From positions 1 through 38,159 of the IMG/VR virus record IMGVR_UViG_3300045988_123528: a DNA stretch of 38,159 nt; one strand, written 5' to 3'. The notes beneath the pieces are model-generated. The model saw nothing but the letters and a program-made list of their open reading frames with translations, was not told where the DNA came from and did not search any database. The first letter of the stretch is position 1, and each line of letters starts with the position of its first letter. Source of the DNA: a virus (Duplodnaviria > Heunggongvirae > Uroviricota > Caudoviricetes). This document shows, in pieces, positions 720 to 7,993 of this stretch. The position numbers and the translations under genes were made by a program.

Positions 720-1292
720 ATGTTTTGCGAAGAAAAAGTAGCTCAAATGGCTGCATACCTACTTCTTAAGCGAGGTGGGCGCATGGCATATCTGAAATTG
801 ATGAAGTTGCTCTATCTGTCTAACCGCCAGTCGATTTTGAAGCATGGCAGGATGATCGGCGAAGATAGCCTTTACTCTATGAAATTTGGACCAGTCATGT
901 CGAATACGCTGAACTTGATTCGCGGTAAGGCTGAAGGCATTGGTGACTACTGGTACAACTTGATAGAGACGAACGGGCATAATGTATCGTTGCGTTCAGA
1001 TCCGAGGGAAATGGATGCAGACGAGGTCTTTGATGAATTGAGTCGTGCAGATATCCGGATTTTAGATGAAATCTATTCTCGGTATGGGCATATGAACCGA
1101 TTTGATCTCGCAAATATGACGCATTTAGAAAGCGTTTGTCCAGAGTGGCACGATCCTGGCAATTCTCGTAAGCCTATAGACCTGAAAGAAATGCTGATCA
1201 GTGAGGGTAAAAGCGAGGATGAGGCTAATCGCATAATTGGCAAAATGGAAGAATCTCAGAAACTTAAGGAATTTTCTTTGCAATTATCATGA
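720..1292 (+). CDS. Panacea-domain (DUF4065, SocA/PanA-like) protein, putative antitoxin
   Basis: 190 aa; KLMKLLYL and MKFGPV motifs recognised as the Panacea pattern; SD GAGG upstream; stop overlaps next start (ATGA). Confidence 0.55.
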   Translation: MFCEEKVAQMAAYLLLKRGGRMAYLKLMKLLYLSNRQSILKHGRMIGEDSLYSMKFGPVMSNTLNLIRGKAEGIGDYWYNLIETNGHNVSLRSDPREMDADEVFDELSRADIRILDEIYSRYGHMNRFDLANMTHLESVCPEWHDPGNSRKPIDLKEMLISEGKSEDEANRIIGKMEESQKLKEFSLQLS

Positions 1293-2286: not shown

Positions 2287-2862
2287 TCATAATTCTGTGC
2301 TGGTGGCAGGAATTAATTTCTGCCAGATAGCGGAAACATATTTTGCCTGATGACGGGCATCAGCCAGGGCGTTGTGCCGTTCGCCATCGAAAGGCATGTC
2401 CATTTTGGGGTCGAATCCGATGGAACGCCCAAGCGTAACGATCGTGCGTACATCGTGGTCATTCCAGTATGCCCACGGGCAGATTTGTCCTGCTCGCTCA
2501 TAAGCTCCACGTAAAATTACGTTGTCGAAGGTGGCTCCGTTACCCCAGACTTTTAAATATTTCGTATTGTCTGCGTGCCGGTTAATGAAATGATTTAGTT
2601 CTGAGAGAGCATCGCTGATCGACAAAGTATCATCAATACAGATTGCAGCTCGTGCTTCAGGGCTTTGTTTCAACCACCACAGGATGGTATCGCCGTCAGG
2701 TGTAGCTCCTTGCCCCATAGCACTTTCCAGGCTAACAACCGTATAGAATTCTTGTCCGATGTCTCCGGTTTCTGGAGTGAAGAACACCGCGCCAATGGAA
2801 ACGATCGGTGCATCCTTATTTTTCCCCATCGTCTCAAGGTCGATCATTAAGTTGTTCATCAC
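2287..2862 (-). CDS. Phage 3'-5' exonuclease (DnaQ-like)
   Basis: 191 aa; N-terminal MIDLETMG exonuclease motif. Confidence 0.75.
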   Translation of the reverse strand: MMNNLMIDLETMGKNKDAPIVSIGAVFFTPETGDIGQEFYTVVSLESAMGQGATPDGDTILWWLKQSPEARAAICIDDTLSISDALSELNHFINRHADNTKYLKVWGNGATFDNVILRGAYERAGQICPWAYWNDHDVRTIVTLGRSIGFDPKMDMPFDGERHNALADARHQAKYVSAIWQKLIPATSTEL

Positions 2863-3668
2863 TTCACCTCTTGTGATGGTTTTGCTGCAAAATACTCGAT
2901 ACCTTTATCCCAGATAGATTTTATGGTCGACCACGTGACTGGCACTTTAATTTCAATACGTCCGCTCCCGTCACAGGTATCGCAATCATCATCGCCAAAG
3001 CATTCCAGGCAGCTTATAAACGTAGTTTCTGAAAATTCACCGGATAGCGCCCCCTTAGCGCCGTTCTCGGCTGTTAGTCTCTTCGGCACCATAACCCAAC
3101 CATCCGGAGTTACCGGAGAGTTGCCAGACAGTGCGTTCTGCAATCGTTCCAGCTTAACGTATTCCTGAACCCTGTTTCCGTCGCACGCCTGAAGCCATTG
3201 CACAGCCTTTTGCGCATCAGTGTGAAAGGCACAAGTGCGACCGTCATCAAATTGCATTTCGTAGAGGTCAGCAACCTGTTTAAACTGCGTTTGTGGCAAC
3301 TTGTAAGCCTGGCTTGCAGGTACGGCACCATAGAGCATGGCAGCGCGGCAGGCGTTCCAGCCTTCATCAAAACCGACTATGCCATTATTTAAAGACGGAC
3401 GAGCATCTGGCACCACCGGCACTGGCTTGGCTATATATAGCGGCTGAACATACCAGCCCTTTGATAACCAACTGTCAGCAATGTTTTTACTCCTGGTTAT
3501 TGCCGGAATACCTAAGCCATTGTCTGAATGCAGCCATGCCACCGGATCCTCTTCCAGCGATGCCAGAGCAATTTCATAAGCACGGCGCTCAACATTGTCT
3601 CGCACGTCCATGCTGCTGATTCGTTCTTTGATTTCTTTAATCAGTTCTTTATCGGTAAATGTGGTCAT
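2859..3668 (-). CDS. Hypothetical phage protein with C-terminal CxxC-x5-CxxC zinc-ribbon motif
   Basis: 269 aa ORF in operon context; CLECFGDDDCDTC near C-terminus. Confidence 0.5.
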   Translation of the reverse strand: MTTFTDKELIKEIKERISSMDVRDNVERRAYEIALASLEEDPVAWLHSDNGLGIPAITRSKNIADSWLSKGWYVQPLYIAKPVPVVPDARPSLNNGIVGFDEGWNACRAAMLYGAVPASQAYKLPQTQFKQVADLYEMQFDDGRTCAFHTDAQKAVQWLQACDGNRVQEYVKLERLQNALSGNSPVTPDGWVMVPKRLTAENGAKGALSGEFSETTFISCLECFGDDDCDTCDGSGRIEIKVPVTWSTIKSIWDKGIEYFAAKPSQEVK

Positions 3669-4684: not shown

Positions 4685-5509
4685 TCAGGCGGTGAAAGTA
4701 CCAATAAAGGTTTCTACTTTGCTGTCCTTGAATTTCTCAACAAGCAGATCACGAAATTCGTTAGCCATTTCTTCCTGCACCGCCTCCAGCTGAATAATGC
4801 GCAGAACCAGTACAGGACGATCGCCAGTGATAATGCTGAGGCGTAATTTAAACGGACGTTCTTTCAGACCTTCAAACGGAACGCATTTAAATTCAAATGC
4901 CACTGGCATAATGTCTTTGGTCTTCGCTTCGACAGACTCCATCAGGGAGCGTTTGCCGCTGAAGTCATTGTCTTCAAAATCAGCGGTCTGGTTCGCTTCA
5001 ATTGTGATTTTACGGATCGCCGCAGCCGCTTTGGTTGCCTGAATGGCGTCACCATTAGCATCAAAGCCCACAAGGTAGTCGGCCCAGTCTTCAATCCATT
5101 CTGCCAGTGACTTCTGGGAGTTACGCTCGCCATTAACAGACAACAGAGCAGAGAACGGTGCTGTCTTTTTCAGTTTGAGAGTGGCGGTGTTATCTGCGTG
5201 ACCTGGTTCATCAATAGTACCCAGGTTAAGCACACTGACTGCTCGCATATTATCGGCATCGATAAAGCAGCGGGTGCCTTCATCTGCAAGATCTTTAGAA
5301 TAACGGGTAAAGTCATCGATGCTGGCAGTGGAAAGTGCACCACGGAAACGGAAGCGATTTAAATTAAATTTTTCCAGATCATGAATGCGGAAATTCTCAG
5401 GCAATGCCACAGCATCGGCACCAATATTATTGATAATTTCATTAACACCCTGAGCAGAAATAAGGGCATGGATTTGATTAATTGCGGTTGCGTCTAAGTT
5501 CTGAGACAT
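4685..5509 (-). CDS. DUF2303 / YfdQ-like prophage protein
   Basis: 274 aa, the size of E. coli CPS-53 YfdQ; SD GAGGA upstream. Confidence 0.55.
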
Positions 5510-5574
5510 AATAAGTCCTCACTATATAAAGATATTCAGTGATGAGATAAATAATCAGTTTATTAAAAGCGATA

Positions 5575-5937
5575 TTAACGACCTGCTGCGCGGAGTTTTC
5601 CGTCAGGTTCACCGGCAAGAGTCAGTAATTGTCCCTGGTCTTCCTGCAGAATAGTCAGGCGACCACCGCGATTGACATACATCGGCGTTTCGGTGGTGTC
5701 TTCTTCGGAAATTTTCCCGCGGTTAGTCGGGCGAACATATGAGAGTTTGTGTTTGATTTTCACACGGTTCTCATCAAATGGTTCGATTTCCAGGTTGAGC
5801 GAGACCTTACCTTTGGTTTTCGTGTTCATCACACCGGAAGCGACTTCACTGAGAACTGCGCCGATTTTGGTTTCAAATACGCCGCCGTCCAGCTCCCCAA
5901 TAAATGCCTGCACATCAGTACTGCGTTCGCTAGCCAT
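5575..5937 (-). CDS. YfdP-like hypothetical protein
   Basis: Start chosen at MASERSTD with SD GAGGAG 7 nt upstream; the track ORF extension to 6255 is GC-rich non-coding-looking. Confidence 0.55.
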   Translation of the reverse strand: MASERSTDVQAFIGELDGGVFETKIGAVLSEVASGVMNTKTKGKVSLNLEIEPFDENRVKIKHKLSYVRPTNRGKISEEDTTETPMYVNRGGRLTILQEDQGQLLTLAGEPDGKLRAAGR

Positions 5938-6374
5938 TTTGCTGCTCCTCATCATATCGACCCTGCAAGGCCGATTAGTTTCTCCACAAAACAGAGAAGA
6001 ACACCTGCGGCGGCAGCCGCCCGGATGGATTGGGTTATGAGCCCGTCGTCCGGTGATGCTCTTCTCTGTTTTGTAAAAAGGACGGTACCAGCCTGAAGCA
6101 AGGGTACAAACTGGTACCGCCAGGACTACACACAGCATAAAGTTGTGGTGCCGGGTGCCTCCCGGTGCCTGGCGAAGGTTGCACACCAGACGGGTGGGTA
6201 TCCACAGAAGGTCGACTGTCAGCCTCAACCTTAACCCGCGTGCGCTGAGCCGCATTCACCACAACGCTAAGGATTCTCTTTGGTTGAAAATACTTAGCTG
6301 TTATGTGCCTGTCTTTTCACCACTTCAGGCTCGGTGGTATCCTTTTAAGCCCGTATACATAAAAGGAAAATCAA
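5938..6374. other. Non-coding, hairpin-rich block (possible structured RNA or regulatory region)
   Basis: About 430 bp with no credible ORF; 17/18 bp inverted repeat at 5987-6003 / 6057-6074; perfect 9 bp inverted repeat CGGTACCAG / CTGGTACCG at 6083-6119; GCGGC..GCCGC hairpin. Confidence 0.4.
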
Positions 6375-6620
6375 ATGACTTTTGATGAAAAAGAACTTGA
6401 TAATGCAATTAATAAAATCATCGTAACGTCGCTCTTTTCCTGTCTCAGCGACACTCAGCAGAAACAGTTCTACGAATCGGCTTTCAACATGATCGAGCGT
6501 TGTTGTTTCTGCGATGCCGACGAGTTACCTGAAAAAATCAGGAAACAGTTGGCTGATGCTCTTCGAGTGCGACTTTCTGACCAATTTTCTGAAATGTACT
6601 CTCCGAATTTGGACAAATAG
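6375..6620 (+). CDS. Hypothetical small acidic protein, antisense to the leftward early operon
   Basis: 81 aa; SD AAGGA 6 nt upstream of ATG. Confidence 0.45.
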   Translation: MTFDEKELDNAINKIIVTSLFSCLSDTQQKQFYESAFNMIERCCFCDADELPEKIRKQLADALRVRLSDQFSEMYSPNLDK

Positions 6621-6813
6621 AAAAAGGCCATTTCCATTCAGGGTCTGATGGAAATACTTCAGCCTGTTCCAAAGCACGGCGTAAAGAGAACACAACTCCA
6701 GCCATAATCTGATGTTTCCCATTGGTCCAGCTATCGCCGCTCTGATCTACAGGGGCGGCTATGTCGTATGACCAAACGACTTCACAGTTATTGTTTAAAA
6801 TCTGGACTTTCAT
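6538..6813 (-). CDS. Hypothetical protein, first ORF downstream of PL (N-gene position)
   Basis: 91 aa; weak SD; overlaps 6375-6620 convergently by 83 bp, so one of the two may be spurious. Confidence 0.35.
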   Translation of the reverse strand: MKVQILNNNCEVVWSYDIAAPVDQSGDSWTNGKHQIMAGVVFSLRRALEQAEVFPSDPEWKWPFSICPNSESTFQKIGQKVALEEHQPTVS

Positions 6814-6931
6814 TTTGTTCTTTAACCTCCAGATACGGGCGTTTAATTGCCCCGCCGAACAGCTCTTTTCCGCAATAGCTGCAATGTCTTTCGCGAATCA
6901 GCCTGCGCATTCACCACAACTCTAAAAACAA

Positions 6932-6984
6932 ATGTAGGATATCCAACATGCAAGTGTCAAGAGTTTATGTTGGTTATCCTACAT
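6932..6984 (-). promoter_or_regulatory. OL/PL: two 18 bp operator palindromes flanking a leftward TTGACA -35
   Basis: ATGTAGGATATCCAACAT (6932-6949) and ATGTTGGTTATCCTACAT (6967-6984); TGTCAA at 6954-6959 is TTGACA on the minus strand. Confidence 0.65.
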
Positions 6985-7046
6985 GAAAAGATAGGCTCAT
7001 AAAAAAACCGGGGATACCCCGGTTTTGCGATAGTGAGGAAGATGTG

Positions 7047-7700
7047 TCAAAAATCCATTATTACTTGTTTGACAAGACCAACTATTCTGCAGTTCTCACC
7101 GCATTCAATAGTTTTATAGTTAGGATTTAGTGGGACGAGATACCTGTTCGGCCAGTCCTCAACAAATTTTTTGAGTGTCGCTTCTTGCCCACCATTGATA
7201 TGGGCAACAACGATTTTTCCGTTAATACACTCTGTATCAATAATATCTGGCTCTACGATAACGATAGAACCTTCTGGTATCGATGGTGAGCCGAGGGGAT
7301 TGGTCATTGAATCACCACGGACCCGTAGTGCAAATGCCATTTCTGATACAAGGGCGGTAGTATAAACCCACTCTTCAGCATCTTCTTTCCTGACACCAGG
7401 CTCCGTCATTGTCCATGAACCCGCCTGAACCCACGAGATGAGGGGGACTTTTTTAACTGCGAATATTTCAGGTTTTAGATTTATCTTTGGTTCAGGCGAG
7501 CCTTTTCCGCTAACAAGCCACAGAGGATCGCATTTAAGTGCGTTGGCTAGGGCTTGAAGGTTGGCTCCATTTGGTTGGTAGTCGTCCTTTTCCCATCCAG
7601 TAACCGTGACACGGTTCACACCAGTCAAATCAGCCAGTGCTTGTTGTGTCAGGTTCAGTTCTTTTCGCCTTTGGCGAATACGATCACTCATGTTCATCAT
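7047..7700 (-). CDS. cI: CI-type prophage repressor (N-terminal HTH, C-terminal S24 LexA-like peptidase)
   Basis: HTH LTQQALADLTGVNRVTV; Ala-Gly site (VQAGSW); GDSM Ser and LKKF Lys of the S24 dyad. Confidence 0.85.
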   Translation of the reverse strand: MMNMSDRIRQRRKELNLTQQALADLTGVNRVTVTGWEKDDYQPNGANLQALANALKCDPLWLVSGKGSPEPKINLKPEIFAVKKVPLISWVQAGSWTMTEPGVRKEDAEEWVYTTALVSEMAFALRVRGDSMTNPLGSPSIPEGSIVIVEPDIIDTECINGKIVVAHINGGQEATLKKFVEDWPNRYLVPLNPNYKTIECGENCRIVGLVKQVIMDF

Positions 7701-7763
7701 GTAGGCAATCCTACCACATGCCCATGTAGGATTCTTGACATTGGCATGTTGGATATCCTACAT
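7698..7763. promoter_or_regulatory. OR region with PR (rightward) and probable PRM
   Basis: Operator copies at about 7724-7741 (ATGTAGGATTCTTGACAT, contains TTGACA -35) and 7746-7763 (ATGTTGGATATCCTACAT); a degenerate third copy overlaps the cI start. Confidence 0.6.
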
Positions 7764-7795
7764 TTCTGCTTAACGTAATTTAACGGGAGACAGAA

Positions 7796-7993
7796 ATGCG
7801 GAAATCCGACGTGATTAATTATTTCGGCGGAGTTTGTAAAACCGCCGAAGCCCTAGGTATTAAGCATCCGTCTGTTTCAGAGTGGCCTGAGATTATTCCT
7901 GAAGGCCGAGCGTACCAGTTAGAAAAAATTACTAACGGGAAACTGAAAGTTGACGTGTCTTTATATCAAAAGACTAACAGTGCTGCGGCATAA
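7796..7993 (+). CDS. cro: Cro-like transcriptional regulator
   Basis: 65 aa, divergent from cI, SD GGGAGA; Cro/YdaS-like sequence. Confidence 0.65.
   Translation: MRKSDVINYFGGVCKTAEALGIKHPSVSEWPEIIPEGRAYQLEKITNGKLKVDVSLYQKTNSAAA

Follow-up and report, generated by a model that had tools for sequence, protein, structure and literature searches.

Two direct repeats in the leader of an early-left transcript

Why should two nearly identical direct repeats stand on either side of a short block with two convergent, overlapping genes, just downstream of a lambdoid leftward promoter? The question is raised by the window, by which we mean the whole 38,159-nucleotide (nt) stretch of the Caudoviricetes record IMGVR_UViG_3300045988_123528, which is a lambdoid prophage of the SfV/CPS-53/e14 type. 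An earlier note on this DNA had proposed either an inserted module bounded by the repeats or a pair of cis elements. We consider it probable that the repeats are the conserved 5′ ends of two copies of an STnc100-related prophage RNA, one intact and one cut short, which were placed by mosaic recombination. The observations that carry this reading are the repeat itself, the helices and their covariation, the mosaic joints, a repeat-to-repeat recombinant, and the coding character of both open reading frames (ORFs) in the bracketed DNA.

The repeats are real, with slightly corrected coordinates: the left repeat, AGCCGCATTCACCACAACGCTAA, is at 6248-6270 and the right repeat, AGCCTGCGCATTCACCACAACTCTAA, is at 6900-6925. 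Their ungapped core, CGCATTCACCACAAC followed by [G/T]CTAA, runs from 6251-6270 and from 6906-6925, with 19 of its 20 positions identical and 655 nt from start to start, and the AGCC upstream of it can be aligned only by allowing a 3-nt indel. No third site with three or fewer mismatches to the 20-mer exists on either strand of the 38 kb, and 100 dinucleotide shuffles gave zero matches to it, so none is expected by chance. On the minus strand, which is the sense of the transcript from the leftward promoter PL, both repeats read GUUGUGGUGAAUGCG. The features on which the argument turns are as follows.

6248 to 6270, minus strand: left repeat, as RNA UUAGCGUUGUGGUGAAUGCGGCU, the 5′ strand of a closing helix plus a conserved GAAUGCG
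6072 to 6287, minus strand: complete B-type structured RNA, with a 9-bp closing helix and several hairpins, then an intrinsic terminator
6142 to 6150, minus strand: 3′ strand of the closing helix, CACCACAAC, the single such strand in the window, found by inverted-repeat search, fold and covariation
6080 to 6121, minus strand: terminator-like hairpin GGCGGUACCAG...CUGGUACCGUC with a 15-bp stem, and UUUUU at 6075-6079
6900 to 6925, minus strand: right repeat, again with the 5′ helix strand and GAAUGCG, near position +4 of the PL transcript
6835 to 6923, minus strand: truncated A-type scaffold, with the 5′ helix strand, a mismatched hairpin 1 (GCGCA/UUCGC) and about 60 nt of a centre of the type found in phage Lys8385Vzw
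6960 to 6931, minus strand: PL promoter-like site TTGACA-18-TACATT, matching 10 of 12 positions

The right repeat is therefore where the earlier note had placed it, just downstream of PL. The PL transcript would start near A6923, which would put the GUUGUG of the repeat at about +4.

The left repeat and a complete structured RNA

Searching Rfam at its gathering thresholds gave zero matches on the window, and STnc100 appeared only under a permissive search, in which the RF02076 model aligned with 6287-6072 of the minus strand over its full length (positions 1-206 of 206) at 39.5 bits and an E value between 3e-7 and 2.5e-5, according to the search space. In that alignment the left repeat lies on the conserved UGGUGAAU of the model, which is the 5′ strand of its closing helix. 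In the minimum-energy fold of 6072-6287 (−88.6 kcal/mol, z = −3.2), 6265-6257 pairs with 6142-6150 over 9 bp. The B-type element contains the UGGUG...CACCA closing helix of STnc100, several hairpins of which the last (CCGGGAGGCACCCGG) abuts the 3′ strand, and a 3′ intrinsic terminator composed of a stem-loop and U-run. STnc100 and PasD, which has been described as its structural relative (bioRxiv 10.64898/2026.05.13.724894), are Hfq-associated sRNAs encoded by prophages of E. coli and Salmonella, and the window element further resembles this group in its full-length alignment with the STnc100 model, its location in a lambdoid prophage, and its multiple copies per genome. STnc100 overlaps EcOnc27/sRNA103, and EcOnc27 is an Hfq-binding small RNA (sRNA) (PMC12711010); among the copies in strain EDL933, one was confirmed by northern blot and several are abundantly transcribed (PMC5331693).

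The terminator-like hairpin is common to the A-type relatives and constitutes the 3′ end of the Rfam alignment, though a consensus scan for terminators missed the hairpin at 6075-6121 because its loop is longer than 8 nt. In Buttiauxella (locus L014, 2816-3000) a B-type element lies directly upstream of the ribosome-binding site of yfdP, with neither the terminator nor the long leader hairpin of the window, which indicates that RNA and terminator are separable. A search for antisense targets of the RNA bodies within the prophage gave none below E ~0.08. The structured RNA is overlain by a 226-aa ORF (5575-6255, minus strand) that extends yfdP upstream across the RNA, the terminator and the leader hairpin, and in K-12 the coding sequence ymfH (L005 2502-2813) overlies the same RNA features, where other genomes carry a frameshifted pseudogene annotation. 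Both ORFs are probably noncoding over the structured RNA, and annotation should not read either as a protein there.

The right repeat and a truncated RNA

The right copy consists of the first ~90 nt of an A-type RNA and is identical to the start of the intact element in phages Lys8385Vzw and mEp460, where the right repeat runs into a different body and a 3′ strand, UCACCACAAC, followed by the same terminator. Those two phages are without window positions 6123-6834, so that 712 bp stand here in place of 60 nt. The intact A-type element of Lys8385Vzw folds like the B-type element, with a closing helix and terminator hairpin. Hairpin 1 of the right copy is mismatched relative to that of Lys8385Vzw, no copy of the A-type 3′ half exists anywhere in the window, and of 5,426 complete E. 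coli genomes only 37 carry the window-type junction. We take the right copy to be, most likely, a relic whose present role is that of 5′ untranslated region for the 91-aa gene downstream of it.

The events that could have produced this arrangement may be pictured as follows. Each repeat would be the 5′ strand of a closing helix, with CACCACAAC as its partner, in a modular RNA related to STnc100/PasD, whose A-type version is intact in related phages and there begins at the PL start site. The 3′ half of the right copy would have been replaced, at an illegitimate joint at 6834/6835, by an SfV/e14-like block that holds a convergent cassette of two genes together with the promoter-like flank of that cassette and the B-type element. 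The motif marks the sharp 5′ edge of the RNA module and, being both conserved and placed at a module edge, offers a patch of homology where phages swap or lose modules. An intact element is predicted to yield a stable Hfq-type or processed RNA of ~150-200 nt that ends at the terminator and would be made upon induction, transcribed either from PL or from its own weak promoter, with part of the PL transcription presumably reading through to yfdP, xis, and int. More widely, the locus places STnc100-like RNAs also at the very start of the early-left transcript in lambdoid prophages that lack an N-like gene, including e14 of K-12.

Compensatory changes in the helices

Relatives were gathered via yfdP (one genome per species), from E. 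coli genomes, phages and plasmids, and by a pattern scan of IMG/VR. Fifteen elements were aligned, from E. coli, a P1-like plasmid, Buttiauxella, Atlantibacter, Leclercia, Superficieibacter, Phytobacter, Kosakonia, Scandinavium, and contigs labelled Martelella and Chryseobacterium, although the last two labels are doubtful. The arms were chosen by hand, because a relaxed automatic choice of the 3′ anchor gave wrong partners. In this alignment 91.9% of the cells of the 9-bp closing helix are paired, and a G-C pair has become A-U three times and a U-A pair C-G twice. All seven of the one-sided changes yield a G·U pair on the PL-transcript strand, which identifies that strand as the functional one.

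For the A-type scaffold, three helices were tested in 18 sequences: the closing helix, hairpin 1 (GCGCA-GGCUGA-UGCGC), and the terminal hairpin (CCGG-AGAUCAGCA-CCGG). Pairing reached 95.7%, with compensatory change at four pairs, and 0 of 500 shuffles attained that. The B-type terminal hairpin likewise shows compensation, in that CCGGG-AGGCA-CCCGG alternates with GGUGG-AGGCA-CCACC, with the AGGCA loop kept. Changes of both kinds, compensatory and G·U-only, were seen across genera and support the helices.

The two-gene cassette between the repeats

The note's two convergent ORFs are present as claimed, with the overlap of 83 bp, and are preceded on the plus strand by a conserved dyad.

6538 to 6813, minus strand: 91-aa gene (PHROG 3195, the equivalent of SfV orf33), which opens the PL operon, with GGAGG at 6826-6830
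6375 to 6620, plus strand: 81-aa gene, PHROG 3311, convergent with the 91-aa gene and overlapping it at 6538-6620 (83 bp)
6307 to 6346, plus strand: conserved dyad CACCACTTCAGGCTCGGTGG and, by eye, a promoter-like TTCACC-16-TATCCT, immediately upstream of the 81-aa gene

Three relatives in Salmonella and metagenomic prophages, with 67% nucleotide identity, preserve exactly 439 nt from ATG to ATG in a gapless alignment. In the parts that do not overlap, their differences at codon positions 1/2/3 number 17/11/31, 16/8/37 and 21/10/34 for the 91-aa gene and 13/9/31, 14/5/30 and 12/10/35 for the 81-aa gene, so that in both ORFs position-3 differences are 3-6 times position-2 differences, the pattern of purifying selection. 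Both ORFs are real, conserved protein-coding genes, and should be annotated as a conserved convergent pair. Pfam returned zero families for either protein and PHROGs only families of "unknown function," and the AlphaFold2 models of both were of too low confidence (mean predicted local distance difference test scores of 47.8 and 59.5).

In the same Salmonella and metagenomic prophages the cassette comes first after PL and is followed by kilR, gam, and other genes, and neither GUUGUGGUG nor GGUGAAU was found flanking it there. A cassette that occurs in relatives without the flanking motif indicates that the repeats are not its ends. The refutation that the earlier note had set for its own inserted module, synteny of both ORFs where the repeats are absent, is thus what the Salmonella and other prophages show, and both ORFs are conserved in them.

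The dyad precedes three unrelated plus-strand genes, namely the 81-aa gene, ymfI of e14 (L005 ~2860-2900), and a 63-aa gene at locus L008 (~2370-2405), and it is also found upstream of the 81-aa homologues in the Salmonella-type prophages L040-L045 (~3470-3510). This distribution suggests that the plus-strand gene has a promoter of its own, and the dyad is probably the mark of a promoter or operator common to genes that run antisense to PL. In e14 (ymfJ/ymfI) and at L008, unrelated convergent pairs occupy the same place. The e14 layout is otherwise that of the window, with a repressor and PL, a small minus-strand gene overlapping a convergent plus-strand gene, the promoter-like dyad, and a B-type RNA (under ymfH), and its ymfI-ymfJ pair has been listed as a convergent excludon (PMC12288877). 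YmfI, YmfJ and the 63-aa protein of L008 were considered as relatives of the 81-aa and 91-aa proteins and were rejected for want of any sequence similarity. L008 also carries an unannotated distant homologue of the 91-aa protein (2626-2847, minus strand, 35% identity), which is convergent with the annotated 63-aa plus-strand gene and lies downstream of a small "ClpX C4-type zinc finger" gene.

Mosaic joints and recombination at the repeats

Comparison with relatives places the two copies in a mosaic. The region is otherwise familiar, in that 5500-7800 is 98.7% identical to Escherichia phage vB_EcoM-720R4 and 5940-7050 is 100% identical to the chromosome of E. coli WP4-S18-ESBL-09. SfV matches the window over 5500-6815, which takes in the left element and both ORFs, but it has its own PL, and homology with mEp460 ends exactly at 6920. 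The joints with most relatives are at 6122/6123, 6815/6816 and 6834/6835, and none is at the repeats; the joint at 6834/6835 lies inside the A-type centre and is without homology. At L008 an A-type body is joined to the upstream flank that accompanies the B-type in the window. Matches to 5940-7050, whole or partial and most often to the B-type block, occur in roughly 2,900 genomes, and the A-type 5′ piece alone is found in ~1,200 E. coli genomes, including 239 places on plasmids; each repeat occurs singly, without the other, in roughly 1,200-2,900 E. coli genomes.

The relatives also include a recombinant between the repeats. In 9 of the 5,426 complete E. coli genomes (e.g. strain M8), the PL of the window is joined to the B body via the shared GCATTCACCACAAC, and these M8-type genomes are the window minus exactly 655 bp. 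An empty site with a single repeat copy is what an inserted element would leave, and the earlier proposal of a repeat-bounded module draws support from this form and from a comparable unit on plasmids: between P1 and P1-like plasmids (RCS47-like) a 196-nt unit is present or absent and is bounded precisely by the 17-nt direct repeat CTTACCGTTGTGATGAA. Two same-orientation 5′-arm motifs are moreover found in 5 of 23 IMG/VR loci (four pairs are 256-853 nt apart and one is 3.8 kb apart), which indicates that direct repeats a few hundred nt apart are recurrent in this family. These three observations are those that would be expected if the 655 bp were an insertion/deletion unit, gained and lost through recombination between its bounding copies like the unit of a cassette array. 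We nevertheless regard this explanation as unlikely. The bracketed DNA is not one travelling unit, as it combines 65 nt of truncated RNA, the 439-bp gene cassette, and the promoter-like flank of the cassette; the internal joint at 6834/6835 has no homology; the cassette occurs elsewhere independently of the repeats; and each repeat is found alone, as part of an RNA, in over 1,000 genomes. The block has no associated recombinase or terminal structure, and the M8 form could equally have arisen if a Lys8385Vzw-type phage and an e14/SfV-type phage recombined at the motif they share. A target-site duplication or attachment-site-like origin of the repeats was rejected on the grounds of the cassette that occurs without them, the many genomes with a single repeat within an RNA, and the internal illegitimate joint.

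The repeats are thus recombination points, yet not the ends of an inserted element, and the arrangement in the window is an ordinary mosaic scar, a by-product of phage mosaicism. For annotation, this means that the repeats are not the signature of a mobile element and that the PL leader of this prophage is a recombinant. Comparisons of mosaic lambdoid phages, such as HK97 with HK022 and those within the P22 group, have described short conserved boundary or linker sequences at module junctions. The motif resembles these as a short conserved patch where homology starts or stops and which serves as a crossover point, but it differs in being the strand of an RNA helix with a function of its own, which would explain its conservation.

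Weighing the RNA reading against its alternatives

Several results weigh against the interpretation of the repeats as the 5′ ends of two STnc100-related RNAs. The STnc100 score of 39.5 is below the gathering score of 47 that serves as the threshold for membership, and the A-type element of the relatives gave zero matches to the STnc100 model at E ≤ 0.01. Canonical STnc100/EcOnc27 is located in the late region downstream of stx2B (PMC12370729, PMC12711010) and not in a PL leader, whereas the window element lies between PL and yfdP in the early-left operon, away from the late-region company of stx2B, Q, and the lysis genes, and has GUUGUG...CACAAC as an extension of its closing helix. Hand curation of part of the helix alignments, and their anchoring on GUUGUG/CACAAC, bias them toward pairing, and the helix support from the 15 elements is modest, in that 3-4 of 500 shuffles reach it. 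For the whole 859-nt leader, the equilibrium fold joins the right arm to the sole 3′ strand with a probability of ~1.0, a pairing that we regard as an artefact of long-range energy models. Finally, the start site and Hfq binding are predictions, as are termination and processing.

One other function that could be envisaged for the scaffold is that of a put-like, protein-independent antiterminator at the PL start, which would modify RNA polymerase to pass the terminator just downstream and would make the repeats two such sites. The short relatives are without an N-like gene and have PL followed by the RNA, a strong terminator, and yfdP through xis/int, and the flanking genes of the element in e14, ymfJ and intE, are co-induced at a late stage of the SOS response (PMC11002266). 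The putL site of HK022 likewise starts at about +2/+3 of PL, and is a cis RNA within a few nt of the PL start, upstream of terminators, in a lambdoid phage that does without N (PMC9378689). The scaffold nevertheless shows no resemblance in sequence to the immunity region of HK022, where putL and putR lie, and in place of two stem-loops of ~70 nt it forms a closed RNA of 100-135 nt with several branches and a centre that is hypervariable. The window has only minus-strand copies, in its PL leader, and none in its PR operon, the same scaffold occurs in the tRNA arrays of P1-like plasmids and other phages, and the canonical relatives act as Hfq-bound sRNAs (PMC12711010), so that an antiterminator of this kind appears quite improbable.

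The part of the earlier proposal that invoked paired cis elements holds insofar as the repeats are strands of cis RNA helices, but they are homologous 5′ ends and not a working pair, and only the left one has a 3′ partner of its own. A version in which the two 5′ arms compete for the single 3′ strand, and so tie the way in which the B element and terminator fold to how the cassette is transcribed or translated, would be favoured by the complementarity of both arms to 6142-6150 and by the choice of the right arm in the 859-nt fold. That pairing would have to bridge 770 nt, with a translated gene and a convergent transcript in between, while the left arm is 110 nt away, and the energy model under-penalises such long-range closure. 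The architecture is also rare, at 37 of 5,426 genomes, and in the right copy hairpin 1 is broken and the 3′ half missing, so we hold such competition to be very unlikely. That the repeats are DNA sites (CATTCACCACAAC duplex) for a regulatory or recombination protein is scarcely credible, since although the 5′ motif is more conserved than its partner (1 versus 4 changes in six core positions), the changes keep RNA pairing on one strand only, where G·U corresponds to A·C on the other strand, the operators of the repressor are a different 18-bp palindrome, and the motif occurs in tRNA arrays and plasmids without this immunity region. Taken overall, the interpretation offered in the earlier note is partly supported.

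Conserved ends, variable centres, and tRNA genes

With the repeats read as 5′ edges of RNA modules, the wider family can be described by its ends. The A and B bodies are no more alike than shuffles (47 of 500), and in IMG/VR contigs the A-type ends (5′ GUUGUGGUGAAUGCGCAGGCUGAUGCGC, 3′ AAGCCGGAGAUCAGCACCGGCCACCACAAC) enclose at least ~15 unrelated centres of 34-75 nt, with mini versions of ~45 nt in Kosakonia, Atlantibacter, and P1. The conserved ends frame unrelated centres and act as crossover points. In Phytobacter ursingii, the slot upstream of yfdP is occupied by a 79-nt tRNA-Ile(aat)-like gene (L024 2722-2800, L029 1186-1264), the acceptor stem of which is the GUUGUGGC/GCCGCAAC helix, and tRNA genes stand beside the unit on the same strand in 9 of the 23 IMG/VR loci.

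Further tRNA-like material was seen in units that share the frame. Two 130-nt units (L054 2863-2992; L096 ~957-1087, minus strand) contain a D-arm-like AGCUCAAUGGCGAGCU and a T-arm GGUUCGAUUCC and adjoin real tRNA genes, and these parts hint that the frame was derived from tRNA genes. In P1-like plasmids (L006 2300-2680, minus strand), an array that follows tRNA-Asn/tRNA-Thr reads CACAAC, a GGUAAGGG...CCCUUACC hairpin with a T-arm-like remnant, and GUUGUG, and continues with an A-type unit, a second spacer hairpin, and a mini unit. The closing helix there shows a compensatory change from G-C to A-U, and phage P1 itself (69,181-69,325; L047) is without the A-type unit.

We propose only tentatively that GUUGUG(GUGAAU)...CACAAC is the frame of a widespread phage RNA cassette system with interchangeable cargo. 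The ends would form a tRNA-acceptor-like closing helix together with hairpin 1 and the terminal hairpin, and the cargo could be any of the at least 15 unrelated centres, STnc100-type bodies, minis, or real or tRNA-like genes. Lambdoid prophages and P1-like plasmids would harbour such units in early-operon leaders and tRNA arrays; recombination at the frame would shuffle them, and tRNA-type processing might free them from long transcripts. STnc100/PasD sRNAs would then be one branch of a tRNA-derived scaffold family with diversifying centres, which may function as seeds or decoys. The STnc100 and PasD papers (PMC5331693, PMC12711010, bioRxiv 10.64898/2026.05.13.724894) do not mention a hypervariable centre or an association with tRNA, and to our knowledge an RNA family with a tRNA-like frame, variable centres and links to tRNA arrays is only partly described in the literature cited here. 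If the ends do frame exchangeable RNA cargo, the family would offer a tractable model in K-12 for the origin and diversification of prophage sRNAs and for how phages pass the terminator after PL.

Other features of the immunity region

The promoters and operator-like palindromes flank the repressor and the P22_Cro-family gene, and the remaining features of the region are these.

7047-7700, minus strand: LexA/CI-type repressor, divergent from the P22_Cro-family gene
7796-7993, plus strand: P22_Cro-family gene
7735-7764, plus strand: PR, with hexamers identical to those of PL, as its mirror
6932-6949, 6967-6984 and 7746-7763: three 18-bp operator-like palindromes, of which the first two form OL, at PL
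Leftward of the cassette region: yfdP (start at 5937), yfdQ (DUF2303) and yfdR
5986-6074, minus strand: long hairpin of the PL leader, with 25-nt arms, between the terminator and the yfdP start and ribosome-binding site

Structured RNAs cut from early leader transcripts are known from the C4 RNAs of P1/P7 and the CI RNA of P4. The element described here resembles them in being a structured RNA closed by a long helix within an early operon leader, and differs in that no C4-family match exists at the locus or elsewhere in the window. An Rfam search found neither isrK nor C4 RNA in the window; in relatives, isrK and C4 antisense RNA genes, a module of the P1/P7 immI type, lie in the PR operons above Rfam thresholds (L001 4311-4496, L002 5925-6113, L003 5613-5769).

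The hairpin at 5986-6074 may be a site of processing or translation control. By eye, a hairpin with the conserved apical part CCGGGCGACGGGCUCAUAACCCAAUCC is found upstream of yfdP in many genera, and the sequences of its stem vary and stay complementary. A 19-nt inverted repeat with 89% complementarity connects 6301-6319 (TGAAAAGACAGGC) with 6984-7002 (TGAAAAGATAGGC), with one arm beside the conserved dyad and the other between OL and the terminator of the repressor.

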